A stretch of 64,000 bases of DNA, from the NCBI RefSeq assembly GCF_050250275.1, contig NZ_JBFWOY010000020.1:11155-75154 (forward strand). The letters run 5' to 3'. Position 1 is the first letter of the stretch; every line of letters starts with the position of its first letter. Origin of the DNA: Pseudonocardia sp. (lineage in GTDB: Bacteria; Actinomycetota; Actinomycetes; Mycobacteriales; Pseudonocardiaceae). The translations under genes and the position numbers were made by a program. A model generated the notes under the pieces. That model had not been told where the DNA came from and did not search any database. It worked only from the letters and a program-made list of their open reading frames with translations. Of the stretch, positions 3,033 to 51,873 are shown one piece after another.

Positions 3033-3098
3033 GGACGCCGACCGTAGAAGCTGGACCTGGCTTCAGGTCAAGTTGCCCGGCGGACGGCTCGCCACCTG

Positions 3099-30630: not shown

Positions 30631-32370
30631 TCACCGACCGCTCGACCAGGCCGCCCACAGCGCGGCGTACCGCCCGCCCGCGGCCAGTAACTCCGCATGG
30701 CTGCCGAGCTCGACGACCTTGCCGCCGTCGAGGAGCAGCACGGCGTCGGCGTCGGCCGCCTGGGTGAGCCGGTGGGCTACCACGAGCGCGGTTCGTCCGC
30801 CCAGCGCCCGCTGCGCCGCGGACTCCAGGACGCGTGCGCCGGCGCTGCCCGCCTCGGCGGTGGCCTCGTCGAGGATCGCGACCGGTGGATCGGCCAGGAC
30901 GAGCCGGGCGAGAGCCAGCTGCTGGGCCTGCACGGCGGTCAACGCCGAGCCGCCCGCGCCCACCACGGTCTGCACGCCGTCGGGGAGGGCGTCGACCCAG
31001 TCGAGCGCACCGACCCGGTCCAGAGCCGCCCGCAGCTGCGCGGCACCCGCGTCCGGGTCGGCCAGGCGCAGGTCGTCGGCCAGCGGGCCGGCGAACACGT
31101 GCACCTCCTGGGTGACCAGCGCGACGGCCCCGCGGAGCGCGCCGTCGGGCGGTGGCGGGTCCAGCCGGAGCGTGCCACGGTCGGGCTGGTGCACCCCGGC
31201 GACCAGCTTGGCCAGCGTCGTCTTGCCCGCACCGCTGGCGCCGACGACGGCGAGCCGGGCGCCGGCGGCGATGTCCACGTCGACACCGGTGAGCACGTCC
31301 GGCCCGTCGCGATAGCCGAAGGCCACCGCCTCGACCTGGACGCGGGCCGGTGCCGCACCGCGCACCGGCGCCGGATGATCCTGCTCCGGCAGGTCGGCGG
31401 TCCCGACGATGCGCGCCAGACCGGCGGCCGCGGCCTGCACGGTCTGCAGCAGGAACAGCACCTCGTTCAGCGGTCCGAACAGGCCGATGAAGTAGAGCGC
31501 GGCGGCGCTGGCCGTCCCGATCGACACCGTCCCGGAGCGGACCAGCAGGAACCCGACGACCAGCACGAGGGCGAGGCCGACGAACTCGGCCAGGTTGAGC
31601 CGCCCGAAGAACCCGTTCTGCAGGCGGACCACCCGCAGCGCGAGGTCGACGACCCGCTGCGAGCGCTGCCGGACCAGCTCGGTGTGCCGCCCGGCGAGCC
31701 GGAACGCCCGCACCGTCGCCACGCCGACCGTGCTGTCCAGCAGCTGCTGCTGCTGGGCACCGCCCGCGATGCGCTGCTCGGCGTAGAGGGGGGTGGCGCG
31801 ACGCAGGTACCACCGGGCGGTGAGCGCCTGGATCGGCACCGCGGCCAGCGCGGCCAGCAGGAACCGCCAGTCCAGGACGGCCAGCCCGACGAACGTCAGT
31901 ACGATGATCAGCCCGTAGCGGGCCAACGCCGGTACGCCCTCGCGGACCGCCTCGCCGACCTGGGCGACGTCCTCGGTCACCCGGGACCCGAGGTCGCCCG
32001 CGCCGGCCGCCTCGATCCGCTCCAGCGGCAGCCCGAGTGCGCGGTCGACGAGCCGTTCCCGCAGCCGGGCCAGCACGACCTCGCCGACCTGTGCGGTCTG
32101 GGCCACCCCGAGCGCGGCGAGCAGGCCCTGCACGACGGCGACACCGACCAGCCCGACGGCCGGCCAGGTCACCGCATCGGGCCCGCCGCCGTCGACGACC
32201 AGGTCGATGATGCGACCGAGCAGTGGCGCGACCAGCAGGCCTGCGGCGGCGCCGCCGGCCAGGGCCGTCACCGCGAGGACGGCGCGGGTCCGGTGCGGGC
32301 GCAGCAGCTCGCCCAGCATCCGACGGGTGCGGGTCGGGGTGGCGACCGGCAGCAGTTCGCGGTCGGTCAC
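30631..32370 (-). CDS. ABC half-transporter (exporter fold), catalytically competent NBD with degenerate signature motif
   Basis: 579 aa from GTG 32370 (GTGA overlap with the upstream gene). Walker A is GASGAGKTT, the Q-loop is VTQE, Walker B is ILDEAT and the H-loop is VAHRL. The signature position reads LTAVQ instead of LSGGQ. Confidence 0.9.
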   Translation of the reverse strand: MTDRELLPVATPTRTRRMLGELLRPHRTRAVLAVTALAGGAAAGLLVAPLLGRIIDLVVDGGGPDAVTWPAVGLVGVAVVQGLLAALGVAQTAQVGEVVLARLRERLVDRALGLPLERIEAAGAGDLGSRVTEDVAQVGEAVREGVPALARYGLIIVLTFVGLAVLDWRFLLAALAAVPIQALTARWYLRRATPLYAEQRIAGGAQQQQLLDSTVGVATVRAFRLAGRHTELVRQRSQRVVDLALRVVRLQNGFFGRLNLAEFVGLALVLVVGFLLVRSGTVSIGTASAAALYFIGLFGPLNEVLFLLQTVQAAAAGLARIVGTADLPEQDHPAPVRGAAPARVQVEAVAFGYRDGPDVLTGVDVDIAAGARLAVVGASGAGKTTLAKLVAGVHQPDRGTLRLDPPPPDGALRGAVALVTQEVHVFAGPLADDLRLADPDAGAAQLRAALDRVGALDWVDALPDGVQTVVGAGGSALTAVQAQQLALARLVLADPPVAILDEATAEAGSAGARVLESAAQRALGGRTALVVAHRLTQAADADAVLLLDGGKVVELGSHAELLAAGGRYAALWAAWSSGR

Positions 32371-34055
32371 CCCAGCACCACGTCTCGGTAGCGGGCCCGG
32401 TCGGCCAGGAGCCGGTCGTGGCGGTCGAGCGCGGTGACGCGGCCGCCGTCCACGAGGGCCACCCGGTCGGCGACGGCCAGCAGAGCGGGGCTGCTGGTCA
32501 CCACCACGGTGGTCCGGCCGTGGCGCAGGGTGCGCAGTCCGGTGGCGATCTCGGCCTCGGTGACCGAGTCCACCGCTGTGGTCGGGTCGTGCAGCACCAG
32601 CACGGGTGGGTCCGCGGCGAGCGCCCGGGCGAGCGCCACCCGTTGGCGTTGCCCACCGGAGAGCGTCCGTCCACGTTCGGCGACGACGGTGTCGGCCCCG
32701 TCCGCGAGCGCGTCGACCACCTGGTCGGCCCGCGCGGCGGCCAGCGCCGGGGTGAGGTCGCGTTCGGCGGGGGCGGCGGCGCCGACGTTGGCGCGCACCG
32801 TGTCCGCGAACAGCTCCGCGTCGTGGGCCGCGACCAGCACCGCCTCGCGGGCGGACTCGGGTGCGTAGTCGGCCAGCGGTACCCCGTCGAGCCGTACCGA
32901 CCCGTGTTCGGGGTCCGCCTCGCGGGCGAGACAGCTCAGCAGGGCCAGTGCGTCGGCCGGGTCGGCTGCGACGATCCCGAGGAGCTCGCCCGCCCGGACG
33001 TCGAGGTCGAGCCCGGTCAGCGAGCCGTGGCGCAGGTCGGCCACGTGCAGGGCACCGTCGACCCGGGTGGGCGGCGGGGCGCTCCCGGCGCCGACCGCCG
33101 CCGGTGCGCCGAGCAGCTCGGCGATCCGCCGTGCCGACGCCCTGGCCTGCGCGAACCGTTCGTTGACCCAGCCCAGCTCCTGCAGCGGGTCGACGAGGAA
33201 CTGGGCCAGCCCGACGGCGGCCACGAGCTGCCCGGTGCTGATCTGGTCCGCGGCCGCCAGCCGGCCACCGACCAGCGCGATCACGGCGAGGAACGTGCCG
33301 TTGACGATGAGCACGGTCCCGGAGAACCAGGCCTGGCTGCGGGTGGCCCGCAGGGTGGCCGCCAGCGAGTCGGCGCTGGTCCGGGCGTAGCGGCGGACCG
33401 CGGCGGGCTCTGCCCGCAGGCCTTTGAGCACCCGGATGCCCGCGACCAGGTCGGTGGCGGTGCCCGCGGCCTGCGCGGCCCGTTCCTGCTCGGCCTCGCT
33501 GCGCCGCTCGATGGGCCGGCCGAACAGGTGGATCAGGTAGAGCACCGGTGGCGTGCCCAGCAGGATGAGCAGCCCGAGCGGCACCGAGATCCGCAGCAGT
33601 GCCACCGCGGCGACCAGCAGCGCGGCGAGGGCCGCCAGCCCGAGCGGCAGCCCGAAGTTGATCAGACCGACGCGTTTGGTGTCGGAGGTGGCGATCGAGA
33701 CGAGCTCGCCCGGCAGGCGGCCCCTCTCGGCGCCGCCGGCCGGGGCGAGCAGGCGGCGGGCGATGAGCAGCCGCAGACGCTGGTCGGCGCACACGTCCGC
33801 GATCCAGGCCTGCCGGGCGCCGAGCCGGTAGCAGACGGACAGGAAGGCGAAGTCCAGGCCGAGCACGGCCAGCCAACCGAGCAACGCCGCCGGGTCCCCG
33901 GTCCGCAGGGCGGTGTCGATCACCACCCCGACCAGCACCGGGACCAGCACCTCGCCGATCTGGTGGCCGCCGAAGCAGAGGGTGGCGAGCCCGACCCGGC
34001 CCCGGAAGGCGCCGATCGACCCGGTCAGGACCGACCGGCCGGAGGACGCGGTCAT
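32367..34055 (-). CDS. ABC half-transporter (exporter fold) with degenerate Walker A, Walker B and H-loop but canonical LSGGQ
   Basis: 562 aa from ATG 34055 (ATGA overlap with the NRPS stop). The Walker A position reads [15 protein letters not shown] with no GK[ST]. The signature is LSGGQRQR, the Walker B position is VLVLHDPT, and the H-loop position is VVTSSP. Confidence 0.9.
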
Positions 34056-37000
34056 GTGAGGCCACCTTCCGTGCGGTCGTCCTGTCCGGGGCTGCCCGGT
34101 CCGGCGACCGCGCGGACGATGCCGCGCAACGCCTCGAACCACAGCTCGGCCAGGCTCGGCACCTCACCGGCGGCGAAGACCGCCGCCGGCCATTCCCAGG
34201 AAGCGTGCAGCTCGGGCCGCCCGTCGACGTCGACCGCGAGCACGTCGAGCACCAGCGGATGCCCGGCCGGCATGGCGTCGTCCCGACCGCCCGTCAGCGG
34301 GTCCAGCCCCGCCGGCGTCTGCCAGTCGCCCCCGTCCCCGGCGCCCTCCGCGTAGCGCCCGAGGTAGTTGAACTGCAGCTCGGGCTCGGCTGCGCCGGCG
34401 AGCTGGGGGCCGGCCTGGGGGTCGAGGTGGCGCAGCACGCCGTAGCCCAGCCCGCCGTCGGCGACGGCGCAGAGCTGCTCGCCGACCCCACCGACGATCC
34501 GGCGCACCTCGTGGGGGTCGGCGGCCAGCACGGCGGACCACGCGGTGGGCCCGACCGGCAGGTACACCGGGAAGGCCGTGGTGAACCAGCCGACGGTCCG
34601 GGTGAGGTCGACGTCTCCGACGTGCTCCTCCCGGCCGTGCCCCTCCAGGGCGACCAGCGTGCCGTCGCCGGGGAGGCGCCCGGTGCGGCGGCGCCACTCG
34701 GCGGCGGCGACCGCCAACGCGGCGAGCAGGACGTCGTTGACCGTGGCACGCAGGAGGGCCGGGACGGACGACAGCAGTGGTGTCGTCCAGTCGGCCGGCA
34801 GCACCAGGGAGTGCTCCCGGATGGTCGTGGCGGTGTCGCGACCCGGGTCGAGGGGGGTGCGGGCGAACCGGCCGGCCGCCGCCTGCGCGGTGGCCCGCCA
34901 GTGCGGCAGCTCCCCGGCCCGGGCACCGGTGCGTCCGGCGTCGGCCAGCCCGCGGGCCCAGGTGCGGAACGACGTCCCGACGTCGGGCAGGGCGATCGGC
35001 TCGCCCGCGCGGTGGCGGGCCCACGCCTCGGCGAGGTCCTCGGTGAGGATCCGCCACGACACCCCGTCGACGACCAGGTGGTGCGCGACGAGCAGCAGGA
35101 TCCCCGGGGCGGCCGGTCCGGCGTCGAGCAGCACCGCCTGCGCCATGACCCCGCGGTCGGGGTCGAGGCGGGCGGCGGCCTGCAGCCGCTGCTCCTCGAC
35201 GACGGTCCCGACGTCGGTGCCGGCCGGCAGGTCGGCCACCGACAGCAGGTCGCCGGCCCGGACGGTGCCCGGCTCGGGGACCTCCAGCTCCCAGCGTGCC
35301 GTCTCGCGGTGCAGCCGGGCGCGCAGCAGGTCGTGGTGGTCGAGCAGGGCCTGCAGGACGGGCAGGAGCGCCGGGGCGTCCACCCCGGCCGGGGTCTGCA
35401 GGGTCACCGCCTGGTGGAAGGCGCCGATCGAGCCGCCCGCCGCCGCGGTCGACCCGGCGAGCCATCCCATGATCGGGGTGGCGGGCAACCGGCCCGTCCC
35501 GGCGCCGTCCACGTCCACCCGAGCCGCGGTCGCCGGACCGGAACCCAGCGCGGCCAGGGCCTCGACGGTGCGTGCCGTGCGCACGTCCCGCGGCCGCAGC
35601 ACCAACCCGTGCCGGCGGGCCTGCGACACCAGCGCGATCGAGCTGATGCTGTCGCCGCCGAGTGCGAAGAAGTCGTCGTCGATGCCGACGTCCGGCACCC
35701 CGAGCAGCCGCCCGATCAGGTTGCACAGGCTCCGCTCGGCCTCGGAGCGCGGCGCGCGGTGCTCCCGCGTCCCGGTGAGCTCCGGAGCCGGCAACGCTGC
35801 GGCGTCGAGCTTGCCGTTGACGGTCAGCGGCAGCTCGTCCAGCACGTCGAGGGTGGTGGGGACCATGTGTGGCGGTAGCTGCTCGGCGAGGTGCGTGCGC
35901 ACCGCGGCGACCAGCGCCGCCGGGTCGGCGGGCCCGGCCGCGACCAGGTAGCCGGCCAGGTGGGCGATCCGGGCCTCCCCCCGCCGGTGCACCGTCACCG
36001 CCGCCTGGGCCACCCCGGGGTGGCGTTCCAGGGTGGCGACGATCTCGCCCGGCTCCACCCGGTAGCCCCGGATCTTGACCTGGTCGTCGGTGCGGCCGAG
36101 GAAGTCGATGTTCCCGTCGGCCCGCGCGACGACGAGGTCGCCGGTGCGGTACATGCGCCCGCCCGCGGCGGCGCCGTACGGGTCGGCGACGAACCGCTCC
36201 GCCGTCGGCCCCGGGCGGTCGTGGTAGCCGCGCGCCAACCCGGCGCCGGCGATGTAGAGCTCACCGGGCGTACCGGGCGGGACGGGGCGCAGCGCGCTGT
36301 CGAGGATGTAGGCGCGGGTGTTGGTGACCGGTGTGCCGACCGTCGGTGTCACGCTGTCCTCGGTGCCGCCACCCAGGGTGTTGATCGTGTACTCGGTGGG
36401 GCCGTAGAGGTTGTAGCCGACCACCCCCTCCGCGGCGGCCAGCTGCGTCCACACCGACTCGGTGACCGCCTCCCCGCCGAGCAGGACCAGCGGCGGTCGG
36501 TGCGGGCCGTCGAGCAGGCCGCTGTCGAGCAGTGTCCGCGCGTAGGTGGGCGTCACGTTGACGACGTCGATGCGCTGCTCGGCGCAGTAGGCGACGAGCT
36601 GCTGGGCGTCGCGGCGCAGCTCCTCGTCGCACACGTGCACCTCGTGGCCCTCGACGAGCCAGAGCAGCTCCTCCCACGACATGTCGAAGGAGAACGACAC
36701 GGTGTGCGCGATCCGCAGCCGGCGGCCCCCGGCCCGGTCCAGGGTCGGGCCGAAGATCTTCGCCTGGTGGTTCACCAGCATGTTCGTCAGCCCCCGGTAC
36801 GGGGTGAGCACGCCCTTGGGGAGCCCCGTGGAGCCGGAGGTGTAGATCAGGTACGCGGGGTGCTCCAGCCGCCCCGGCGTACCGGGCGCGAACGGGCCGA
36901 GCTCGGCGGGGGTGAGCGCGGCCGGTGACTGCCGCGCGAGCTCCGCGGCGGTCTCCCCGCCGTGCAGCCCCACCACCGGTGCGCCCACCTCGGCGGGCAG

Positions 37001-40000
37001 CCGCTCCGCGCCGGGCCTGTCGGCCAGCACGCACACCGGCCGGGCGTCGGCGAGCATCACGGCCCACCGGTCGGCCGGGTGGTCGAGGTCCAGCGGCAGG
37101 TAGGCCGCGCCGGTGCGCAGCACCGCGAACAGCGCCACCACCGTGTCCAGCGACCGCGCCATCGCCAGCGCGACGGTGCGCTCCGGCCCGGCACCGCGCG
37201 CCAGCAGCAGCCTGGCCAGCCGGTTCACCCGGGCGTCGAGCTCGGAGAAGGTCAGCTGCTCGCCGTCGCACACCAGCGCCACGGTGTCGGGTCGCGCCGC
37301 GGCGCGCTGCGCGAGCAGCTCGGCGACCGTCGCCGGGGGCACCGGGTGGCCGGTGGCGGCCCAGCCCTGTTCGAGCGCGGCCCGCTCCGCCGGGGCGAGC
37401 AGCTGCAGCCGGGCCATCGGCCGGTCGGTGTCCGCGGCCAGTTCGTGCAGGACCGACAGGAACGCCTCGTACAGCCGCCGCGCCCGCTCGACCGGGACGC
37501 GTCGTTCGTCGTACTGCAGCCGCAGCGCGAGCTCCGCGCCGGGGAAGACCTGCAGGGACGCCGCGAAGTGGGTGCGCGCCTCGACCGACTCACCGGTGCC
37601 GGTGATCCGCAGCCCACCCGGCGCCCGCCCGTCCGCACCGGGCGGGAAGTTCTCGAACACGAACAGCACGTCGAACAGCTGTTCCACACCGGCCAGCGAC
37701 TGCACCTCGGCCAGCCCGAGGTACTGGTGCCCGAGCAGGTCGGCCTGCTCACGCTGGTGGGTGAGCAGCACGTCGCTGATGCAGTGCGTGGGTGACCAGC
37801 GCACCCGCACCGGCACGGTGTTGATGAACAACCCGACCTGGGAGTCGATGCCGGGGACGTCGGCGTCGCGGCCGGACACCACGGCACCGACGACGACGTC
37901 GTCGCGTCCGGTGAGGGTGCCGAGTGCGATCGCCCACGCCCCGCTGACCAGGGTGTTCAACGTCAGCCCGCGGTGGCGTGCCGCTGCCCCCAGCATGCCG
38001 GTGAGCTCCGCCGGGACCGTCCCGGTCAGCGCCGCGGGGGCGGTGGGGGCGGCATCGGCGGGCAGGGCGGCGCCGAGCAGGGTGGGCTCGGTCAACCCCG
38101 CCAGCGCCGCCCGCCAGGCCGCCCGGGTCCGGCCGGTGTCCTGACGCGACAGCCAGCCCAGGTACTCCCGGTAGGACGGCACCGGCAGTGGGTCCCGGCC
38201 GTCGCCGCGGGCCTCGATCAGGTCGAGGAGGTCGTCGAACAGGACGGGCAGCGACCAGCCGTCGGCCACCAGGTGGTGCAGGGTGACGACCACCCGGTGC
38301 GCGGCGTCCGGCTGCTCGGGCCGGTCGCCGGTGAGCAGGGCGACCCGCAGCAGCGGCGCCTCGTCGAGCGCGAAGGCGTGCCGTCGTTCCTCCCGCGCGG
38401 CGCGGGCGGTGGTGGCGTCGTCGGCCGGGTGCAGCACGCGCAGCGGGACCTCGACCGTGCGGGCCACGGCCTGGACGAGCCCGCCGTCGAGGGTCTCGTG
38501 GAACGAGGCGCGCAGCGCGGGATGGCGGGCGGTGAGCGCGGCGAGCCCGGCGCGCAGCTGCTCACCGGTCAGCGGGCCGGCCAGCTCCAGGACGTACTGC
38601 ACGATGTAGCCGTCGGGGTCGGCGTCGCTGTGCAGGTGGTAGCGGGAGTGGAAGTACATCCCCTGCTGCAGCGGCGTCAGCGGCCACACGTCGGCCAGGC
38701 CGCCGGTGACCGTCGCGGCGAGCGCGTCGACGTCGGGCTGGGCCAGGGTCACGAGCGGGAAGTCGGCGGGTGACGGGCCCCAGCCGCCGGGCGCCGGGGC
38801 GTGCTCGGCGAGGGCCGCCAGCGCGGCCGCCCAGCGCTGCGCGATCGCGGTCACGTCGGCCTCGGCGAGCACCCCGTCGGGCCAGGCGAACGTGGCTGAC
38901 AGGGACGGGCCCGCGGCACCGTCGGTCACCGCGGCGTTGATCTCCAGCGGGTAGCCTGCCGCGGTGTCCGGGTCGGCCCGTTCGCCCAGCGCCGGGCGTT
39001 CCGGGGCGAGGCCCCAGTCCTGGCCGTCGGGGTGCTCGCCGGTGCCGAACCGGCCGAGGTAGTTGAACAGGACGGACGGGGTGGCGGTACCGGCCCAGGC
39101 CTGCGCCCGGTCCGGGTGCAGGTGGCGCAGCACCGTGTAGCCGATCCCGCGGTCGCGGCGTGCTTCGATCGCGGTCCGGACCCGCTTCGCGGCCGCCGCC
39201 ATCGCGTGGCCGCCGTCGAGGAACTCCGCCCACGCCACGGGCCCCGGGTCGAGCCGGACCGGGGCGATGGTGGTGAACCAGCCCACGGTCCGGGACAGGT
39301 CGAGGGTCTCGTCGACCGCGGCGCCCTCCCGGCCGTGGCCCTCCAGGTCGACCAGCACCGCGCCCTCGTCGCGGTCGCCGCGCAGGGCCACCGCGAGCGC
39401 GGTGAGCAGGACGTCGTTGACGGTGCCGCCGAACGCGGCCGGGACCGCGCCGAGCAGCCGCCGGGTGACCGCGGCGGGCACCGCCACGGTCGACGACCGG
39501 GTGGTGCCGACCGTGTCGCGGGCCGGGTCCAGCGCCCGGTCCCCGACCGGGCACACGTTTCGCGGGTCCAGCTCGTCGCGCCAGCGGGGTAGCTCGGCCA
39601 GCCGCTCGTCGCGACCCGCCTCCCGGTGCAGCGCCTCGGTCCAGTCGCGGAACGAGGTGGGCACCGGCTCCGCGGCGAGCCGACGGCCGTCCTGGTGCTG
39701 CTGCCACAGCTGCGCCAGGTCCTCGCCGACGATGCGCCAGGACACGCCGTCGACCACGATGTGGTGGGCGACGAGCAGCAGCCGGCCGCGCCGGGTCGGC
39801 CCGGCGTCGACGAACACGGCCTGCACCATCACCCCGCGGTCGGGGTCGAGCCGGCCGACCGCCTCGTCCTCGCACGCGTCGAGCAATGCGGCGAGCGCGG
39901 CCGGGTCGTCGGGCGCGGGGACGGTCCGCAGCAGGTCCGCGGCCGCGACGGTGCCGGGCTCGGGAACGTGCAGTGCCCAGTCGTCGGCCCGGTCCAGCCG

Positions 40001-43000
40001 GGCCCTGAGCAGGTCGTGCCGGTCGAGCAGGGCCTGCAGCAGGGCGACCTGCGCGGCCGTGTCGGCGCCGACCGGGGTCTGCACGCACAGTGACTGGAAG
40101 AACCCGTTGATGCCGACCGCCTCGTCGCGCAGCCCGGCGAGGATCGGGATCGGGGGAACGCGCCCCACCCCCGACCCGGGTTCGTGCCGGGCCGCCGGGG
40201 CGGTCGCGGCGGCGAGGGCGAGCGCCTCGGGGGTGCGGCGCTCGAACACCAGCCGCGGGCTGATCGCGATGCCGAGCCGGCGGGCCTGGCCCACCAGCCC
40301 GATGGAGACGATGCTGTCGCCGCCGAGCTCGAAGAAGTCGTCGTCGACACCCACGTCGCCGACGCCCAGCAGCTCCTCGAACAGCCCGCACAGCACCCGC
40401 TCGGGGTCGGTGCGCGGGGCGCGGCGCCGACGGCTCGACGCGAACGTCGGCTCCGGCAGCGCGGTCGTGTCGAGCTTGCCGTTGACGGTCAGCGGCAGCT
40501 CGGGGACCTCGACGAGCGCGGCCGGGACCATGTGGGCGGGCAGGCGCTCGGTCAGCTCGGCCCGCACGGCGGCGACCAGCGCGTCGGCCGGGGTCCCCGG
40601 GACCGCCGGCACCAGGTAGCCGACGAGCCGTTTGCGCCCGGACGGGCGATGGGTGTGCGCGATCACCGCGGCGTGGGCCACCTGCTCCAGCGACTCCATA
40701 GCGGCGGCGATCTCCCCGGGCTCGACCCGGAACCCGCGGATCTTGACCTGGTCGTCGGTACGGCCCAGGAAGTCGACGTTCCCGTCCGGACGCAGGCGGA
40801 CCAGGTCACCGGTGCGGTACATGCGCCGCCCCGGCCCGGCGGCGAACGGGTCGGCGACGAACCGTTCCGCGGTGAGCGCGGCCCGCCGGTGGTAGCCGCG
40901 GGCCAGCCCGGCGCCGGCGATGTACAGCTCGCCGGGGCAGCCGACCGGGACCGGGCGCAAGGAGGTGTCGAGCACGTAGCCGCGGGTGTTGTGGATGGGC
41001 TTGCCGACGGTGGGGGTGGCGCTGTCGGCGGTTCCCCCGCCCAGGGTGTTGATCGTGTACTCGGTGGGGCCGTACAGGTTGTAGCCGGTGACGCCGTGGG
41101 CGTCGCGCAGCGCGGACCACACCGTGTCGGTGACGGCCTCGCCGCCCAGCAGCACCAGCGACGGCCGGTGCGGGCCGTCGAGCAGCCCCTCCTCCAGCAG
41201 CGCGTGCGCGAACGTGGGTGTCACGTTGACGACGTCGATGCGCTGGTCGCGGCAGTAGGCCACCAGCTTGTGGGCGTCGCGGCGCAGCTCCTCGTCGCAC
41301 ACGTGCACCTCGTGGCCCTCGACGAGCCAGAGCAGCTCCTCCCACGACATGTCGAAGGAGAACGACACGGTGTGCGCGATCCGCAGCCGGCGCCCGCCCG
41401 CGGCGCCCACCACGGGGTCGAAGATCTCGGCACGGTGGTTGGCCAGCATGTTGGTCAGCCCCCGGTACGGGGTGAGCACGCCCTTGGGCAGGCCGGTGGA
41501 GCCGGAGGTGTAGATCAGGTAGGCGGGGTGCTCGAGCCGGGCGGGGTCGGCGGCGGCGAAGCCGGGGCGCTCCGCGTCGCCGAGCGGGCCCGCCGGGAAC
41601 GCGGCCAGCTCGGCGACCACCGCCGGGTCGTCGAGTGCCGAGATCGGGACGTCGGCGGGCAGCAGAGCGGCGGCGTCGGCCGTGGTGAGGACGCACACCG
41701 GGTCGGCGTCGGCGACCATCACGGCGAGGCGCTGCGCCGGGTACTCCAGGTCCAGCGGGAGGTAGGCGGCGCCGGTGCGCAGCGTCGCGAACAGTGCGGC
41801 GACCATGTCCGTGCCGCGCGGCAGGGCGAGCCCGACGACGCGTTCGGGGCCCGCGCCGCGGGCCAGCAGCAGCCGGGCCAGCCGGTCGACCCGCTCGTCG
41901 AACTCGGTGAACGAGAGCTGCTGCGACCCGCAGACGAGGGCGGTGTCCGCGGCGTGCGCCGCGGCGGTCGCGGCGAGCGTCTCGGCCACCGACTCCGTGC
42001 CCAGCGGGCGGGTGGTGGCCGACCAGTCCCGCTGCAGGTGCGCCCGCTCCTGGTGCCCGAGCAGGTCGAGCCGGCCGAGTGGGCGGTCCGGGTCGGCGAC
42101 GAGCGCCGCGGCGACGTCGGCCGTGCGCCGCAGCAGCGCCGTCGCCTCGGCGGCGCTCACGGCGACGTGGTGTTCGAGGGTCAGGCCCAGCTCGTCGCCG
42201 GGGGTCGCGATCATCACCAGCGGGTAGTGGGTGGCGTCGACGTGGCGGCGGCCGACGACCCCGGCGGCGTCGAGGGCCCGCTGCGGGATGTCGGCGAAGT
42301 TCTGCAGCACGAACAGGGTGTCGAACAGCACCGGCTGCCCTGCCGCGCGTTGGATGGCACCGAGCCCGAGGAACTCGTGCTCGCTCAGGGCGAGCCGCTC
42401 GTTCTGCAGCCGGCGCAGGAACGCGCCCACGGCTTCGGCGGGGTCGGTGCGCACCCGCGTCGGCACGGTGTTCAGGAACTGGCCGACGACGTGCGCGGCC
42501 CCGGGCAGCTCCGGTGGCCGCCCGGCGACGGTGGTGCCGAAGACCACCTCGTCGCGGCCGGTGAGGCCACCCAGCACGAGCGCCCACGCCGCGTTGAGCA
42601 CGGTGTTGAGGGTGACCCCGCAGCGCCGGGCGCCCGCGCGCACCGCCTCGGACCCCCCGGCGGGCACCGTGATCGCGGTCCGGGCGGGGATGGCTGCGGG
42701 GGCGGTGGTCCCGGCGCGCAGCGCCGGAGCGACCAGGGTGGGTTCCTCGATCCCGGCGAGGGCGCCGGCCCATGCCGCGCGCGCGGCGTCGCCGTCACGT
42801 TCGGCCAGCCAGCGCAGGTACTCGGGGTAGCCGCCCGCGGGTGGCAGCGCCTGCGCGCTGCCACCGCCGTAGAGGGTGAACAGCTGGTCGAACAGGGTGC
42901 TGTGCGACCAGCCGTCCCACGCCAGCAGGTGGTAGGTGACCACCAGCCGGTCGGTGCCGTCGGGCAGGCGCAGCAGCGACATCCGGAACAGTGGCGGCGC

Positions 43001-46000
43001 GGTGAGGTCGAACCGGCGGGTGCGGTCGGCGTGCGCGATGTCCCCGGCCCGCGCCGCGGCCTCGGCGGGGGCGAGGCCGGACAGGTCGTGCTCGGTCACC
43101 GGGTCGTCGGCGGCGGCCCGCACGACCTGGTGGACGGTGCCGTCACCGTTGTCGACGAACGCGCAGCGCAGCGTCGGGTGCCGCAGCTGCAGCAGCTGCG
43201 TCGCTGCGCGCAGGCGGGCCGCGTCGACGCGATGGTCCAGTTCGAAGGTGGTCTGCCCGGTGTAGACGTCGAGCGCCCCGGAGTCGTCGAAGACGGCCTG
43301 GAAGTACAGCCCGGACTGCAGCGGGGAGAGCGGCCAGACGTCGGTGAGGTCGGCGAACCGCTCCCGTAGCGAGCCGAGCGTGGTGAGGTCGAGCGGTACC
43401 AGTTCGAGCGGCGCGACCGGCGGCCGGGCCTGCTCGGGGGTGTCCTCGACGGTGGCGACGAGGGCGAGCGCCTCGGGGGTCCGGCTGGTGAAGACCTGCC
43501 GCGGGGTGAGGACCAGACCGCGTTCCCGGGCCCGGCCGACCAGGGTGACCGAGCTGATGCTGTCGCCGCCGAGAGCGAAGAAGTCGTCGCCGGCTCCGAC
43601 GTCGGTCGCGTCGAGCAGCTCGGCGAACAAGGCGCACAGCACCCGCTCGGGCCCGGTCCGCGGAGGGCGGCTGCCGCCGCCGGTGTAGACCGGCGCCGGG
43701 AGGGCCCGGACGTCCAGCTTGCCGTTCGTGGTCAACGGCAGCTCGTCGAGGGCGACGATCGAAGCGGGGACCATGTGGGCGGGCAGGTGCAGCGCCAGGT
43801 GGCTGCGGATCTCGGCGGCGGGGGCGCCGGCGCGCGGGTCGGCGGGAACCAGGTAGGCCGCCAACCGGGCGAGGGCCGGGCCCCCGCGCGACGACGTGCT
43901 GTCGACGACCACCGCGGCCTGCGCGACCAGGGGGTGCGCCTCCAGTGCGGCGACGATCTCACCCGGCTCGATCCGGTAGCCGCGGATCTTGACCTGGTCG
44001 TCGGTGCGGCCGAGGAAGTCGATGTTCCCGTCGGGGCGCCGTCGGGCCAGGTCGCCGGTCCGGTACATGCGTCCGCCCGGTTCGGTCGCGTAGGGGTCGG
44101 CGACGAACTTCTCGGCGGTCAGGCCGGCCCGGTCGTGGTAGCCGCGGGCCAACCCGGCGCCGGCCAGGTAGAGCTCGCCGGGCGAGCCGTCGAGCACGGG
44201 GCGCAGCGCGCTGTCGAGGATGTGGACCCGGGCGTTGTGCACCGGCCGCCCGACCGTCGGGGTGGTGCTGTCGCCGACACCGCCACCGAGCGCGTTGACG
44301 CTGAACTCGGTGGGCCCGTAGAGGTTGTAGCCGTCGGTGCGCGGCGCCTCGCGCAGCGCGGTCCAGACGGAGTCGGTCGCGGCCTCGCCACCGAGCAGCA
44401 CCAGCGACGGTACGTGCCCGCCGTCGAGCAGGCCGGCGTCGAGCAGGGCGCGGGCGTAGGTCGGTGTCACGTTGAGGACGTCGAGGCGCTGCGCGCGGCA
44501 GTGCTCGACGAGGCGGTGGGCGTCGCGGCGCAGCTGCTCGTCGCACAGGTGCAGCTCGTGCCCGTCGAGCAGCCAGAACAGCTCGTCCCAGGACATGTCG
44601 AAGGAGAACGACGTGGTGTGGGCGACCCGCAGCCGGCGGCCCCCGGTACCGGCGAGGGCGCGCGGGACGATCTCGGCGCGGTACTCGGCCAGCATGTTGG
44701 TCAGGCCGCAGTGCGGGGTGAGCACACCCTTGGGGGTGCCGGTGGAGCCGGACGTGTAGATCAGGTAGGCGGGGTGGTCCAGCCGGCCGGGTGAGCCGGC
44801 CGTGAACCCTGCCAGGTCCGTCGACGACGGCGGCCCGGGTGGCAGTGCGGCCAGCTCGGCGACGATCCCGGGGCTGTCGAGCCGGATCGTCGGCACGTCG
44901 AGGGCCGGCGCGTCGAGGTCGGGGCCGTCGGCGAGCGCCACGACGCAGACCGGCCGGGCGTCGCCGACCATCGCGGCCAGCCGCGCGGGCGGCAGCTCGA
45001 GGTCCAGGGGCAGGTACGCGGCGCCGGTGCGCAGCACGGCGAACAACGTCGCCACCATGTCGGTGGAGCGGGGCAGGGCCAGGGCGACGACGCGCTCCGG
45101 GCCCGCGCCGCGCGCCAGGAGCAGCCGGGCGAGGCGGTCGACCCGCGCGTCGAGCTCGGCGAAGGTCAGCCGGTCGTCGCCGCACACGAGGGCCGTGCCG
45201 TGCGGGGTGGCCGTGGCCAGCGTCGCGAGGTGCTCGGCCACCGTGCGGTCGGGCAGGTCGCGCTCGCTGGCCGACCACGCCGCGCGCAGCGCCACCGGTT
45301 CGTCGTCGGTCACCACGTCGACCCGCCCGACGGGCTCGGCGGGTGCCGCGAGCAGCCGTCGCGTCGTCGTCGCCAGGCGGTCCAGCAGCGCCGTCGCCGT
45401 CGCCCGGTCCAGGACGTCGGGCCGGAACTGCAGGGTGAACCGCATCCGCGACTCCGGTGCGACGACCAGCGCGAGCGGGTAGTGCGTCGCGTCGGCGTAG
45501 TCGACGTAGCGGGCGCCCACCGCGTCGAGCACAGCCGGGTCCAGCTTCGGGAAGTTCTGCAGCACGAACAGGGTGTCGAACAACGGCTGCTGCCCGGCGG
45601 CGCGCTGGATCTCGGCCAGCCCGGCGTGCTCGTGGTCGAGCAGGGCCGCCCGGTCACGCTGGATCCGCTGCAGCAGGGCGCTCACGGGCTCGGCGAGGTC
45701 GAGCCGCACGCGAGCCGGCACGGTGTTCAGGAACTGGCCGATCGACCGGTCGCTGCCCGCCAGCTCGGGCGGCCGCCCGGCCACCGTGGTGCCGAAGACC
45801 ACGTCGGTCCGCCCGGTCAGCCCGCCGAGGGTGATCGCCCAGGCGGCGTTGAGGACGGTGTTGACGGTGACGCCGAGGGCGCGGGCGCCGGCGCGGACGG
45901 CGTCGTCGGCCTCCGCGGGCAGCTCCAGTTCGACGGTCGAGGGCAGGACGGGCGCGTCCACGGGGGCGGCCTGCCGGGCGCCGGCGACGAGCGTGCCGCC

Positions 46001-48505
46001 GTCCAGCCCCGCCAGCGCGTGCCGCCACGCGGCCGCGTCGGCCCGGTGGTCGCGGCCGGCCAGCCAGCGCGGGTGGTCCAGGTGCGACGGCGGGGCGGGC
46101 AGTCCCGGATCGGTGCCGTCGTGGCCGAGCAGCGCGAAGAGTTCCCGCAGGACGATGTGGTGCGACCACCCGTCCCACGCGGTGAGGTGCTGGGTGAGCA
46201 CCAGCCGGGACCGGCCACCGGGCAGGTGGGCGACGGCGATGCGGAACAGCGGCGGCGCGGCGAGGTCGAAGCGGCGGCCGCGGTGGTCCGCGGCGAGGGT
46301 GGCCAGGCGCTCCAGCGCGTGGTCGAGGGGCAGGTCGGTGAGGGTGACCTCTTCGACGGGGACGGTGGCCGTCGGCAGCACGACCTGCACGGGCTGCGGA
46401 ACGCCGTCGGCGGTCAGCCCGGCGCGCAGGAACGGGTGGCGTTTCAGCAGCGTCGCGCACGCGCGGCCGAGCAGGTCGACGTCGAGTGGGGTGGCGAACT
46501 CGAAGTCGTGCTGTGCGGTGTAGGGGTCGACGTCGCCCGAGCCCTCGTAGACCGACTGGAAGTACAGCCCGGACTGCAGCGGCGCGGCCGGGAAGACCGC
46601 GTCCGTGCCGACGCCGTAGCGGGCCGCGGCCCGGGCCGCGACCTGCGGGTCGAGCAGCGGGGCCGCACCGCCGGAATCCCGGGTCGCCCGGTCCTCCGGT
46701 TGCGCGGCGGGGAACCGGGCGGCCAGCGCTTCGGCGGTGCGCAGCTCCATCAGCTCCCGCACCCGCACCCGCAGTCCGTCCTCGTGGGCGCCGCGGATCA
46801 CCCGGACCGCGGTGATGCTGTCGCCGCCGAGTGCGAAGAAGTCGTCCTCCGGGCCCACCTCGGGCAGGTCGAGGGCCTCGGCCAGCCGCCGGCACCAGCG
46901 GCGCTCGGCGTCGTCGCGGGCCGGCCGGCCACCGCCCGCCTCGAGCTGCGGCGCGGGCAGGGCGTCGCGGTCGAGCTTGCCGTTCGGCGTCATCGGGAGC
47001 CCGCCGGCGATCGGCACCAGCACGGTGGGGACCATGTGCGCCGGCAACGAGTCGGCCAGCCGGGCCCGCACGTCGGCCGGCGGGTCCGCCGACGCGTCGA
47101 GCACCACGTACCCGACCAGCATGCGGCGGCCCGGCTGGTCCTCGCGGACGACGACCGCGGCCTGGGTGACGCCGGGCTGCGCCAGCAGCGCGGTCTCGAT
47201 CTCACCCGGCTCGATCCGGTAGCCACGCAGTTTCACCTGCTGGTCCGCGCGCCCGAGGAAGTCGAGGGTCCCGTCGGCCCGCCACCGGACCCGGTCGCCG
47301 GTGCGGTACATCCGGGAGCCGTCGACCGCGAACGGGTCGGCCACGAACCGCGACGCGGTCAGCCCGGCGCGGCCGCGGTATCCCCTGGCCAGCCCCCGTC
47401 CCGCGATGTACAGCTCACCGACCTCACCCACCCCGACCGGACGCAGCCGCTCGTCGAGCACGAAGGCGTGCGTGTTGGGGTCGGGGCGGCCGATCGGGGC
47501 GGGCCCGCTCCACCCGGGCTCGGCCGTCCACAGGGTGGAGTTCACCGTCGCCTCGGTCAGCCCGTAGGCGGTCACCACCCGCAGGGGGCCGGTCCAGCGC
47601 CGCAGCACCTCCGGCGGCACCGTCTCGGTGCCGACGACCAGCACGGCGCCGTCGGGTAACCGGCTCTCCGGCGGCAGGGCCGCCACCAGCGAGGGCGGCA
47701 GGATCATGTGGGTGATCCCGTTGGCGCACAGGTAGTCGGTGAGCTCGGGGCCCGCGACGCGGCGGTGGGCCGGCACCAGGACGACGGTCCCGCCGACGCA
47801 CAGCGACATCGTCAGGTCCCAGACCGCGACGTCGAACCCGATCGAGGCGAACTGCGCGACCCTGCTCCGGGCGTCCACCCCCAGCCGGTCCACCGCGGTC
47901 GCGACGAGGCTGCCGATGCCCTCGTGCGTGAGCAGCGCGCCCTTGGGGCGACCGGTCGAGCCCGACGTGTAGATGAGGTAGGCGGCCCGGTCCAGGTCGA
48001 TCGGGCCACCCACCTCCGCATCGTCGAGGTCGGCACCCGATCGCCCGGCGAGCTCGGCCACCGTGGCGGCGGCGTCCACGCGCACCGCCGCCGTCGCGGA
48101 CGGCAGCTCGCCCGCCAGGTCGGTCGTGGTGAGGACCAGCCCGGCGCCGGAGTCGTCCAGCAGGTAGGCGACCCGCTCGGCCGGATGGTCCAGATCGACC
48201 GGCAGGAACACGGCTCCTGCCTTGAGCACCGCGAGCACCGCGACCACCAGCTCGGGCGAGCGGGGCAGGGCGAGGCCGACGACGTCCTCGGCCCCCACCC
48301 CACGCGCCCGGAGCAGGCGGGCCATCCGGTTGGCACGGTCGTTGAGCTCGTGGTAGCTCAACGACTCGTCCTCGCAGACGACAGCGGTCGCCGTGGGCCG
48401 TTCCGCGGCGCGGTTCTCGAACAGCCGTGACCACGGCAGTTCGTCGACCTCCCGCAGGGGACTGCGGGCCCACGGCGTCAGCTCGTCGATGCTCACTGCG
48501 GTCAC
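34052..48505 (-). CDS. non-ribosomal peptide synthetase, 4 modules: A-T / C-A-T / C-A-T-E / C-A-T-E (4817 aa)
   Basis: Four [14 protein letters not shown] adenylation cores and four [18 protein letters not shown] carrier motifs. Three C domains (active-site motifs at 46169-46189, 42911-42931, 38258-38278). Two E domains (HH[IL]VVDGVSW at 39737-39766 and 35054-35083, plus EGHGRE, RTVGWFT and FNYLG). GTG 48505 is in frame and overlaps the stop of the binding-protein gene (GTGA). The 252 upstream codons of ORF 34052..49261 are shadow sequence. Confidence 0.97.
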
Positions 48506-49530
48506 GGCTTGGCGTCCAGCTTCTCCAGCTCGGGAACGACCTGGTCGAGGGCGTAGGGGATGCTCAGCACGGTGTTGAAGGTGATCGCCGCACCCGGGAA
48601 CGGGGCCTGCGTGTAGTCGAAGTAGGACACGCGGCCGTTGCGGACGACGTCGAGCCGGTTGTAGATGGGGTCGTTCTGCAGGGTGGCCAGGAGGTCGGGG
48701 TCGGAGGTCCAGGCGAGGCGGTCGACGTCGAGCAGCGTGAACTCCTCGGCGCTGACGTTCGCGAGGTTGTCCTGTACGCGCGGGGCGAGCCACGGGGGCT
48801 GCGTCGAGAAGCCGAGGTCGGCGAAGAACCGGGCCTTGGGGTCCTGCGGCGAGAAGACCCCGTAGGTGCCCGCCTCGGCCGTCGCCATCACGAGCATGGT
48901 CTTCGTGGCCCACTGCGGGTGAGCCGTGCGGACAGCGGCGAGCTTCTGCTCCACGCCTGCCACCAGGTCCTTGGCCTGCGCCTCGCGGCCGAGCGCGCGG
49001 CCGATCGTCACCGTCGTCTCCTGCCAGGGGGCACCGAAGGCGTCGTAGGCGCCCGGGTGGGCGACGGTGGGGGCGATCGCCGACAGCTTGTCGTACTCGG
49101 AGCGGTCCAGGCCCTCGTACAGGGCGAGGATCAGGTCCGGACGCAGGGCGGCGACCTTCTCGAAGCTGATCTCGCCGGCGTTCGCGACGATCTCGGGGGT
49201 CGCCCCCTTCGCGGCCGCGGTCGCCCACGGGAAGATCGCGCCCGGCTGCTCGTCGAACCATTCCGTCGTGCCGACCGGCTGGACACCGAGGGCGAGGACG
49301 GCGTCCTGGTCGCTCCAGCCGATGGTGACCACGCGCTGCGGCGAGGTGGCGATGGTGGTGGAGCCGAGGGCGTGGTCGATGGTCACCGGGAAGCCGGGAC
49401 CGGCCGGCGGGGCCGACGGGGACGAGGCGGGCGACTGCGCTGTGCCGCAGCCGGCGAGGGCCACGGCGAGCGCCGCTGCGAGCGGCAGCAGCGTCCGTCG
49501 TCGAAGTGTTCGGGGCATGCGGATACTCAC
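48502..49530 (-). CDS. siderophore/iron-complex ABC substrate-binding lipoprotein (FecB/FhuD-like, cluster A)
   Basis: Signal peptide with lipobox [25 protein letters not shown] and [12 protein letters not shown] are typical of iron-siderophore binding proteins. GAGGAG lies 7 nt upstream of GTG 49530; ATG 49518 is the alternative. Confidence 0.9.
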
Positions 49531-49586: not shown

Positions 49587-49814
49587 TCAGCGGGTCGGCG
49601 CGGCCGGCTCGGAGCGCTGCCGCAGGCTGCGGGGGCGCAGGTCGTCCCAGTGTTCGTCGATGTGGTCCAGGCACTCCTGGCGGCCGGCTGCGGACAGGAC
49701 CACGCGCCAGCCCTCGGGGACCGCCGCGAACGCGGGCCACAGCGAGTACTGCTCCTCGTCGTTGACCAGTACGTGGAAGGTGCCGTCCGGGTCGTCGAAC
49801 GGGTTGGTGGACAT
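49587..49814 (-). CDS. MbtH-like protein
   Basis: [39 protein letters not shown]...[20 protein letters not shown] is the canonical MbtH signature (NxExQxSxWP...GW). Confidence 0.95.
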
Positions 49815-49842: not shown

Positions 49843-51108
49843 TCAGACCAGGGCCGAGCTGCGCTCGGCGATCGACTGCACGATCTCCCCACTACGCACG
49901 GCGATGTTCGACAGCAGCGTCGACGACAGTCCATGGGTGTGTTCGGTCGCGCCCTGGACGTAGATTCCCGCGCGCAACGCCTCGTCGGTGGCCACCCGGT
50001 AGTCGCGGTTGATGCTCAGGCGGCCGGTGTCGTCGCGCAGGCAGGATCCGGTGAGGTCGCCGAGGAGGGCGCACGGGTCGGAGGGCCGGTATCCGGTCGC
50101 ATAGACCACGAGGTCGGCTCTGACGGCTTCGCGCCCACCGTCGAGCATCGACTCGAGGACCAGTTCGACGTGGTCGCGGCCGGCCACCACGTCACCGATG
50201 CGGCTGACGTTGAGGAACCGCAGCCGTTCGCGCCCGCTGATCTTCTCGTGGTAATGGCGGCGGTAGAGGGACTCGATGAGCTCGGGGTCGACGACCGAGT
50301 AGTTGGTGTTGGCGTGGTAGCCGAGAATCATCTGTTTGACTTCGGGGGGTGCTCCGAAGAAGTCGTCGACGGCGCCCGGGTCGAACACGCGGTTGGCGAA
50401 CGGTGTGTCGTCGGCGGGGCTGTAGCCGTAGCGGTTGAAGACGGCCCACACCTCAGCGGACTCGAACCTGCGGTGGAAGTGGTCCACCGCCTCGGCTGCG
50501 CTCTGCCCGGCGCCGACGACGATCACGCGACGCGGGTCGATCGGCTGGTCGGTGCGGGTGAGGAGGTCGCGCGTGTGCCAGATCCGCTCTCCCGGGACCA
50601 CCCCGTCGGGCAGGTTCGCGGTGAGCCCGGTGGCGACCACGACGTTACGGGTGCGCATCGTCGTCCCGCCCGACGTCCTGACGTCGAGGAACTCGGGTGC
50701 GTCGGGTACCGGATCGATCGAGGTCACGGTCGTGCGGTAGTCGACGTCGTCGGCGAATCGCCCGGCGACCCATTCCAGGTAGTCGTGGAACTCCAGACGT
50801 GTCGGGAACGCGCTCCCGTAGTTGATGAAGTCGATCAGCCGGCCCCGGTCGTGGAGGTAGGACAGGAAGCCGTACGGGCTGACGGGGTTGCGCAGGGTGG
50901 CGAGGTCCTTGAGGAAACTGATCTGCATCGTCGCGTCTTCGAGCAACATGCCGCGGTGCCATCCGAACGTGGGCTGCCGTTCCACGAACCGGGTACTCAA
51001 CCCCGCGCCAGGGGTGCTGCTGTTGTGTTCGGCGACGGCGACGGCGAGCGCCAGGTTCGATGGTCCGAAACCGACGCCGACCAGGTCGAACGACCCACAT
51101 CGAGACAT
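49843..51108 (-). CDS. L-ornithine/L-lysine N-monooxygenase (SidA/IucD/PvdA family)
   Basis: [16 protein letters not shown] (FAD GxGxxN variant), [23 protein letters not shown] (NADPH) and DLVVYATGY. Confidence 0.93.
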
Positions 51109-51132: not shown

Positions 51133-51151
51133 CTAGGCTACCTTTGCCTAA
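51133..51151. promoter_or_regulatory. IdeR/DmdR-type iron box candidate
   Basis: ctaggctacctttgcctaa; the reverse complement TTAGGCAAAGGTAGCCTAG matches 13/19 positions of the remembered consensus TTAGGTTAGGCTAACCTAA, with both outer TTAGG/CCTAA arms preserved. It is centred in the AT-richer 66-bp gap between the divergent N-monooxygenase and SIP genes. Confidence 0.5.
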
Positions 51152-51174
51152 GGGAAGGCTTACTTCAATAGCCC

Positions 51175-51873
51175 GTGTGGGCGGACACACAGCGGAGTCG
51201 TTTCGGCCCCGCGCGGTCAGGAACGGGCGGTCTCCGTACGGTGCGGCGCGTCGAGGGTGACCGGGTGACCGTCGACGTCGTCGTCCACGAGGGTGGCGCC
51301 GCGACGGCGTGGGCGCGCCGCGGCCGGCCGGGCGACCGGCTCGCGGTGACCCACCAGAACAGCTGGTTCACCCGGCCCGACGGGGTCGGCTGGCAGGTGC
51401 TGCTCGTCGACACCACCGGCCTGCCCGCGGCGGCGCGCATCGCGGAGGAGGCGCCCGCGGGGATGCGGACGATCGTCGTCGCGGAGGTCCCGTCGACCGC
51501 GGACGAGCAGGAGCTGGCCGGGGCCGAGGTCACGTGGGTGCACAACCGCCAGGTCGTGCACGGGGGGTCGCGGCTCGAGCGCCTGGCCCGGGAGCTGGTG
51601 CTGCCCGAGGGGCCCGGGTACGTCTACGTCGCGGGTGAGGCGGCGGCGACCCGTGCCGTCCGCACGTACCTGCGTCGTGAGCTGCGGTTGCCCGCGGAGT
51701 CGTACGGGGTGATCGGCTACTGGCGCCGTGACGCGGTCGCGTGGGCGGAGCGGGTGGCGCGGTCGGACGTCGATCTCGGCGAGTTGTGGCGGCGCTCCGA
51801 GGCCGAGGCGGCCGACGGGCAGGAGGCCCTGGACCTGTACGAGGAGCGGTTGGGGGGCGTCGGCCTGCTGTGA
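51175..51873 (+). CDS. siderophore-interacting protein (ferric-siderophore reductase family), apparently lacking the N-terminal part of the FAD-binding barrel
   Basis: LRTVRRVEGDRVTVDVVVHEGGAATAWARRGRPGDRLAV resembles RxYTxR...H..GPAs.WA...pGD, and the NAD-binding half is VLLVDTTGLPAAARI...VYVAGEAAATRAVR. Only about 20 residues precede the RxYT-like motif, versus roughly 70-90 in the SIPs I remember. Confidence 0.7.
   Translation: MWADTQRSRFGPARSGTGGLRTVRRVEGDRVTVDVVVHEGGAATAWARRGRPGDRLAVTHQNSWFTRPDGVGWQVLLVDTTGLPAAARIAEEAPAGMRTIVVAEVPSTADEQELAGAEVTWVHNRQVVHGGSRLERLARELVLPEGPGYVYVAGEAAATRAVRTYLRRELRLPAESYGVIGYWRRDAVAWAERVARSDVDLGELWRRSEAEAADGQEALDLYEERLGGVGLL

Follow-up and report, generated by a model that had tools for sequence, protein, structure and literature searches.

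How does a nonribosomal peptide synthetase (NRPS) let go of its product when its last module ends in an epimerization (E) domain and no release domain follows? The question is raised by a 64,000-nucleotide stretch of Pseudonocardia sp. DNA (assembly GCF_050250275.1, contig NZ_JBFWOY010000020.1, positions 11,155 to 75,154; hereafter the window), whose minus strand encodes an NRPS of 4817 aa (34052..48505). Translation, Pfam searches and a map of motifs gave this protein the order A-T-C-A-T-C-A-T-E-C-A-T-E, where A, T and C are adenylation, carrier and condensation domains. The window has a G+C content of ~75%, and its nearest relatives are Pseudonocardia genomes, the best of which shares 88% amino acid identity over the last domain of the NRPS. 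The model that we favour, with a probability of roughly 55% from sequence comparison, is that the four-module line ends at its last carrier and E domain (T4-E2), and that the terminal hydroxyornithine would release itself as a cyclic hydroxamate. The layout is already known, and the locus is an instance, with an uncharacterised product, of the release logic published for scabichelin-type systems. Its more novel content is a rule for docking tails, a sequence signature (HxxxWDGWS) in a subset of C domains, and a cluster free of acyltransferases.

The terminal epimerization domain

Pfam recognized only four AMP-binding, four PP-binding and five Condensation-superfamily stretches in the NRPS, and neither a thioesterase (TE; PF00975) nor a reductase (R) domain. 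Pfam and motif positions agree that the protein closes with a C-A-T-E module; neither a TE nor an R nor a further C domain comes after it, as the initial annotation of this locus had stated. Its carrier, T4 (35546..35731, minus strand), matches Pfam PP-binding and bears Ser 4286 within a GGDSI motif. The terminal E domain, E2 (34106..35503, minus strand), covers aa ~4335-4800; between it and the stop codon lies a non-conserved tail of 17 aa. This TGA overlaps the ATG of the gene for ABC transporter 1 (ATGA, 34056-34052), which bears out the overlap described earlier.

The last ~480 residues had been annotated as holding the full set of E-domain motifs, and all of the motifs quoted were found. 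E2 contains seven E motifs, once each and in canonical order, between aa 4343 and 4718; they start at aa 4343 (TPIMGWL), 4475, 4590, 4621 (EGHGRE), 4636, 4685 (GLGYGVL) and 4712 (FNYLGRY). HHLVVDG, with the catalytic His 4476, and EGHGRE, with Glu 4621, are invariant in the E2 domains of the window NRPS and its six orthologues, as are all catalytic motifs of the domain. Identity across the six orthologues is 60-89% for E2 and 59-90% for the internal E domain, E1 (38801..40168, minus strand; HHIVVDG and EGHGRE).

The initial annotation had allowed that profile analysis might class the last domain as condensation-type (CT). Comparison with the PDB, with E1 and with NCBIfam instead placed it with E domains each time. 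When the last 502 aa were searched against the PDB, the ten best matches (E 2.6e-46 to 1.9e-35) took in the E domains of TycA (2xhg) and GrsA (5isw); chains of PvdL, TycB and BacC also matched, over what we take as their E domains. A single further match, to a chain named 'C-domain type II peptide synthetase', scored E 5.5e-5. Within the same NRPS, E2 matches E1 at 45% identity (E 5e-97), and its similarity to C1-C3 is not significant. In NCBIfam, E2 and E1 align to one segment of PvdL (2784-3220), and C1-C3 align to the C segment that follows it. Against TIGR01720, E2 scored 72.6 bits, just below the cut-off of 74.2, and E1 scored 95.7 bits. On these comparisons the last domain is a genuine E domain, and not a CT or C domain, with predicted epimerase activity.

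Docking tails and partner genes

Six further Pseudonocardia loci (L001-L006) encode the same NRPS end (...C-A-T-E-C-A-T-E), which is thus conserved in seven genomes including that of the window. In all of these proteins the E core 'ELWFEALRG(I/V)V' is followed by 2-20 variable residues, after which the protein ends, and no docking tail after the E domain is present in the window NRPS or in L001-L006. Eight other E-ended NRPS proteins of the same genome scan served as controls, from Streptomyces (L008, L010, L013), Nonomuraea (L011, L012, L015, L016) and Longispora (L017). An acidic tail, '..PSD(V/L)xLxxLSQDE(I/L)(D/T)xFE.EW', is conserved in all six controls that were aligned (L008, L010, L011, L013, L015, L017), and a gene that starts with a C and then an A domain lies within ~30 nt downstream in all eight. 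The same tail ends P0148 and P0149, two A-MT-T proteins (MT, methyltransferase), of which P0149 precedes a 7566-aa NRPS (L023). Since the tail and an adjacent C-starting gene occur together, the tail behaves as an inter-subunit docking element. No NRPS gene was found within 10 kb downstream of the synthetase gene in L001-L006, and no further NRPS piece lies anywhere in the 64-kb window, where the NRPS stop is translationally coupled to a transporter gene.

Full-length comparators came from a representative search, of which the best 150 proteins were considered. Among these, 56 end in an E domain, 41 of them with the acidic tail and 15 without. All five proteins with a hydroxyornithine-type code in the last A domain (DMENLGLINK in two, DAQEGGLVDK in three) are among the 15 that lack the tail, and neither code occurs in any of the 41 tailed proteins. 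The two DMENLGLINK proteins are orthologue-like, and DAQEGGLVDK corresponds, in a different alignment register, to the code DAWEGGLVDK published for scabichelin; the five proteins amount to only about two independent lineages. On this evidence the lack of a tail is suggestive of the end of a line, and hand-over to a partner NRPS appears unlikely. The initial annotation had named hand-over as the usual meaning of a C-terminal E domain while seeing no partner in the window; the absence of the partner stands, whereas the hand-over reading is disfavoured for a protein that has neither the tail nor an adjacent C-starting gene. The presence or absence of the acidic tail offers a practical rule in genome mining for telling E domains that hand a chain over from E domains that end a line. 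One candidate comparator, the T-E protein P0111 of Amycolatopsis alba, which produces albachelin, was set aside because its cluster is an unrelated one of LysW type, in which a partner NRPS follows it.

The idea that tail-less terminal E domains form a clade of their own with a release signature was ruled out by similarity scores. E2 is 43% identical (305 bits) to the terminal E domain of P0294, an albachelin-like protein, and 43-47% identical (300-333 bits) to ordinary internal or tailed E domains. Because E2 is not specifically related to the terminal E domains of scabichelin/albachelin type, the C-A-T-E end on a hydroxyornithine module seems, from these scores, to have arisen independently, at least twice. 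The lack of a dedicated terminal-E lineage favours an ordinary epimerase combined with substrate-driven release, to which E2 may still contribute.

Substrates, release chemistry and rival explanations

A3 (40475..41992, minus strand) and A4 (35810..37324, minus strand) share the code DMENLGLINK by Stachelhaus extraction. A literature search for Stachelhaus codes, this one included, gave no match; we take DMENLGLINK to be a code for ornithine or N5-hydroxyornithine. From this code and the ornithine monooxygenase of the operon we infer that A3 and A4 load hydroxyornithine, and the substrates of A2 (43718..45238, minus strand; DMDNLGLVNK) through A4 are all predicted ones. A1 (46976..48421, minus strand) has the code DVWIVGAVNK, or DVWILVAVNK in another alignment register. 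This code recurs in the A-MT-T first module directly after an ornithine monooxygenase in L023 and in A domains of the L022 and L024 clusters, which hold a lysine/ornithine monooxygenase or a formyltransferase; a similar code is found in the first module of P0294. Its recurrence near monooxygenase and formyltransferase genes suggests that A1 may load an ornithine derivative, in which case the product would be an all-ornithine tetrapeptide.

C1 (45326..46648, minus strand) and C2 (42071..43393, minus strand) carry an unusual active-site motif, HxxxWDGWS, in place of HHxxxDG. We found this motif in every examined C domain directly before an internal DM(D/E)NLGL(I/V)NK module, in four NRPSs (C1 and C2 of the window, their counterparts in P0242, and C domains of P0294 and P0318). 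The C domains before terminal hydroxyornithine modules, including the window's C3 (37373..38692, minus strand; best Pfam stretch aa 3272-3711), which follows E1 and reads HHLVADGWS, have the ordinary motif without this Trp, and C-domain similarity scores give the same grouping. For kribbellichelin, acylation of N5-hydroxyornithine by a C domain has been proposed. C domains also acylate N5 in coelichelin and erythrochelin assembly. HxxxWDGWS may mark those C domains whose acylation of the N5-hydroxy group forms hydroxamates.

In the favoured model, the monooxygenase would supply N5-hydroxyornithine, and the NRPS with its MbtH-like protein would build the tetrapeptide X-hOrn-D-hOrn-D-hOrn (hOrn, hydroxyornithine), with E1 and E2 as ordinary epimerases acting on residues 3 and 4, which they would invert in thioester-bound form. 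C3 would acylate the alpha-amine of residue 4, so that its N5-OH stays free, and the free N5-hydroxylamine would then attack its own thioester with no need of a TE. Ring closure would yield the six-membered cyclic hydroxamate 3-amino-1-hydroxy-2-piperidone and free the carrier, and export, uptake and iron release would fall to two ABC proteins, a binding lipoprotein and a reductase. Of these steps, we infer the alpha-acylation by C3 and the cyclorelease itself, whether spontaneous or helped by E2. Since the protein lacks a TE, R or C domain at its end as well as a docking tail, and has no partner gene, cyclorelease is the simplest chemistry. The motif of C3 is a plain HHxxxDGWS, and outside the orthologues this domain is most similar to C domains supplying terminal hydroxyornithine modules. 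There is a parallel in gramicidin S synthetase, on which carrier-bound ornithine self-cyclises to 3-amino-2-piperidone. Self-release had been offered in the initial annotation as the alternative to hand-over; it is the reading best supported by the sequence, but it is not new, having been proposed in print for qinichelin, in a text that ascribes the same scenario to scabichelin.

Several points weigh against this model. Nine tail-less E-ended proteins of other lineages (P0263, P0265, P0268, P0277, P0287, P0303, P0333, P0371, P0388) carry unrelated A codes such as DIWELTADDK and DAFWLGGTFK; they are 5024-7231 aa long and 31-38% identical in T-E, and they mean that a missing tail alone is no proof of a line end. 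In the DMENLGLINK modules of coelichelin and erythrochelin the chain is joined to N5, a linkage with which the last residue could not cyclise on itself, and A4 has this code and not the published DAWEGGLVDK of the cyclising module in scabichelin-type systems. Because T2 and T3 carry the same monomer as T4 and do not lose it, cyclisation cannot be both purely spontaneous and fast. No N-acyl, formyl or acetyl transferase was found in the 64-kb window by tblastn or Pfam, and without an acyltransferase the alpha-peptide model gives a single hydroxamate, unless an enzyme acts in trans or the backbone itself holds hydroxamates. A hydrolase encoded elsewhere in the genome is also possible.

The assembly line might itself make all three hydroxamates with no acyltransferase, two in the backbone through C1 and C2 and the third when residue 4 cyclises and leaves, perhaps with E2 as catalyst. 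We put this forward tentatively and consider it unlikely. If true, residues 2 and 3 would contribute backbone hydroxamates and residue 4 a cyclic one, which would make a full hexadentate ligand without any tailoring enzyme; it would also mean that C domains which form hydroxamates can be told by their sequence, and that a domain of the E fold has a second catalytic function.

The best-surviving alternative, though still doubtful, is that a hydrolase encoded elsewhere (CchJ-like or a type II thioesterase) frees a linear peptide ending in a D-hydroxyornithine acid. Such an enzyme would be required if C3 links residue 4 through its N5-hydroxy group, because no internal nucleophile would then be left; with that linkage self-cyclisation would be impossible, and either a hydrolase in trans or diketopiperazine formation would be needed. 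A TE is missing from the coelichelin synthetase CchH as well, whose release step depends on cchJ, and tailoring genes may sit outside a cluster, as does eryM, remote from the erythrochelin cluster, or the monooxygenase gene that the kribbellichelin cluster lacks. Since the window's cluster is already without an acyltransferase, reliance on enzymes in trans is plausible. However, cchJ and cahG sit inside their clusters, whereas no thioesterase or hydrolase gene is present in the window's siderophore operon or beside the orthologous clusters, which lie in four distinct genomic settings. The initial annotation had likewise seen no stand-alone hydrolase in the operon, and the sole alpha/beta-hydrolase of the window, a fusion to a short-chain dehydrogenase (9287-10918, plus strand), lies 23 kb from the end of the NRPS among unrelated genes. 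C3, moreover, resembles the C domains before terminal cyclising hydroxyornithine modules and not the HxxxWDGWS type.

A variant of the favoured model, which we judge improbable, makes E2 itself the off-loading catalyst, with its His/Glu pair activating the N5-hydroxylamine for lactam formation. It would supply the difference needed for hydroxyornithine to cyclise on T4 but not on T2 and T3, and once the chain has been transferred to T4, E2 is the only catalytic domain to reach that carrier, its catalytic residues being intact in every orthologue; C/A/T/E ends also recur in scabichelin-like and nocobactin systems. Yet terminal E domains show no specialised lineage or signature, as the identities above indicate, and the authors of the qinichelin work suggest the C domain of the last module of the TE-less QchJ as the cyclising catalyst. 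Quick capture by the downstream C domain would, in addition, explain why the monomer is retained on T2 and T3.

Release as a diketopiperazine, in which residue 3 is linked through N5 and its free alpha-amine attacks the thioester of residue 4 to give cyclo(D-hOrn-D-hOrn), seems to us quite improbable. Erythrochelin and foroxymithine end in such a hydroxyornithine diketopiperazine, erythrochelin stems from the same bacterial family, and C2 has the HxxxWDGWS motif common to all examined C domains before an internal DMENLGLINK module. The erythrochelin synthetase, however, uses an extra terminal C domain that is absent here, residue 4 offers a better nucleophile in its N5-hydroxylamine, which would likewise close a six-membered ring, and N5 acylation by C domains of the HxxxWDGWS type is hypothetical. 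Transfer of the D-configured chain by E2 to a second NRPS encoded elsewhere and starting with a D-accepting C domain, as in TycA/GrsA logic, is very unlikely, for although this is the commonest sense of a C-terminal E domain, as the tailed majority in the representative search and the partner genes beside all eight controls attest, the window NRPS and its orthologues lack both tail and neighbouring partner, the few residues after the E core are unconserved in all seven proteins, and four residues, three of them from hydroxyornithine-type modules, suffice for a hexadentate chelator.

Although TE-free release has been proposed for several hydroxamate siderophores, we found no biochemical dissection of it in the literature. 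A compact single-gene NRPS of four modules, with a terminal T-E, no tailoring genes and conserved orthologues, would be a clean model for such release. With it one could address whether cyclorelease is spontaneous or assisted by the E domain, how the same monomer is protected on internal carriers, and whether C domains of the HxxxWDGWS type form hydroxamates in the backbone.

The siderophore operon and known release systems

On the minus strand the operon runs in the order monooxygenase, MbtH-like protein, binding lipoprotein, NRPS, ABC transporter 1 and ABC transporter 2. The monooxygenase (49843..51108) is an L-ornithine/L-lysine N-monooxygenase by Pfam (PF13434, E 1.6e-104). The 75-aa MbtH-like protein (49587..49814) was recognized from its sequence, and its position equals that of a Pfam MbtH gene in L021, a related Pseudonocardia contig; in lists of open reading frames it is masked by an over-extended 412-aa frame for the binding protein. 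That binding protein is a siderophore-binding lipoprotein (Peripla_BP_2 by Pfam; 48502..49518) with a 344-aa homologue in L021, and its true start is probably MPRTLRRR (~49518), ahead of the lipobox LAGC. The GTG start of the NRPS at 48505 overlaps the stop of the binding-protein gene (GTGA), and an identical 4-nt overlap lies at the NRPS start in L021. Both ABC transporters (32367..34056 and 30631..32391) are fused permease-ATPase proteins by Pfam.

Divergent from the monooxygenase gene, a siderophore-interacting (ferric reductase) protein is encoded on the plus strand (51175..51873; Pfam SIP and FAD_binding_9). The 66-bp gap between the two genes, a divergent promoter region, holds an iron-box-like site of IdeR/DmdR type (51149..51167, plus strand; TAAGGGAAGGCTTACTTCA). 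With a degenerate consensus this was the sole match in the 64 kb at three or fewer mismatches, and none of 100 shuffles matched; the exact IdeR consensus had no match in the window. With a monooxygenase, an MbtH-like protein, siderophore transport genes and an iron-box-like site all in the cluster, the operon is probably an iron-regulated hydroxamate siderophore system with one synthetase. Past the ABC genes come an ArsR-type regulator and then phosphoenolpyruvate carboxylase, and the remainder of the window encodes primary metabolism and regulators. An EryCIII-like glycosyltransferase gene (12089-13201) adjoins the hydrolase-dehydrogenase fusion.

The flanks of the orthologous clusters vary by genome. 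L001 has a direct ATGA junction between the NRPS and ABC genes, as in the window, and no formyltransferase there, and in L003 (7500-8441) and L004 (11422-12363) a 313-aa formyltransferase is encoded after the NRPS stop, ahead of the first ABC gene. In L002 and L005 the NRPS stop is followed not by ABC genes but by genes for a BrkB-like protein, a cupin/AraC-binding-domain protein and a dihydroxy-acid dehydratase, which indicates that the cluster is rearranged or split in some Pseudonocardia genomes.

Among known systems, TycA and GrsA (A-T-E) share with the window NRPS a canonical C-terminal E domain, but they have the docking element and the adjacent C-starting gene that are absent here. Coelichelin is closer in chemistry, in that CchH is likewise a TE-less hydroxamate NRPS with E domains, and its hydroxyornithine module has the code DMENLGLINK. 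The last module of CchH has no E domain, however, and release is by the cluster-encoded hydrolase CchJ, for which the window's cluster has no counterpart. For qinichelin, a TE-less release was proposed in which the delta-hydroxylamino group attacks the thioester, and a 'similar scenario' was ascribed to scabichelin. QchJ resembles the window NRPS in lacking a TE; the text on it makes no mention of a terminal E domain, its last residue is L-configured and a C domain is the suggested catalyst.

Nocobactin NbtE provides a lysine analogue. It too has the order C-A-T-E with no TE at that point, after which epimerisation and formation of an N-hydroxy-caprolactam turn an N-hydroxylated diamino acid into a cyclic hydroxamate. 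Unlike the window NRPS, for which an ornithine-derived, six-membered piperidone is predicted, NbtE uses N6-hydroxylysine, forms a seven-membered caprolactam and belongs to a mixed line of several NRPS and polyketide synthase proteins. Mycobactin MbtF has the same C-A-T-E layout. With a monomer predicted to derive from ornithine, the window NRPS is an analogue of the mycobactin/nocobactin type and not a member of it.

The closest likeness is to the scabichelin/albachelin type of Streptomyces scabies and Amycolatopsis, which also includes nrps-3 of Phytohabitans. Scabichelin-like NRPSs have a C/A/T/E end whose A domain loads hydroxyornithine and has the code DAWEGGLVDK (PMC7692728). The siderophores amychelin, albachelin and albisporachelin of Amycolatopsis, a genus of the Pseudonocardiaceae, all end in a cyclised hydroxyornithine. 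As in the window, these are actinobacterial hydroxamate lines with a TE-less C/A/T/E last module; the window's NRPS differs in having no N-methyltransferase insertions, no formyl or acetyl transferase in its cluster, and three consecutive ornithine-type modules with no serine. P0294, a tail-less protein of 7420 aa, has the predicted order [A1-like]-Ser-[DMENLGLINK + methyltransferase]-Ser-Ser-[DAQEGGLVDK]-T-E, which fits what we take to be the composition of albachelin, and it is presumably an albachelin-type synthetase that makes a useful comparator. It shares with the window NRPS the A1-like code of the first module and an internal DMENLGLINK module after a C domain with the HxxxWDGWS motif.

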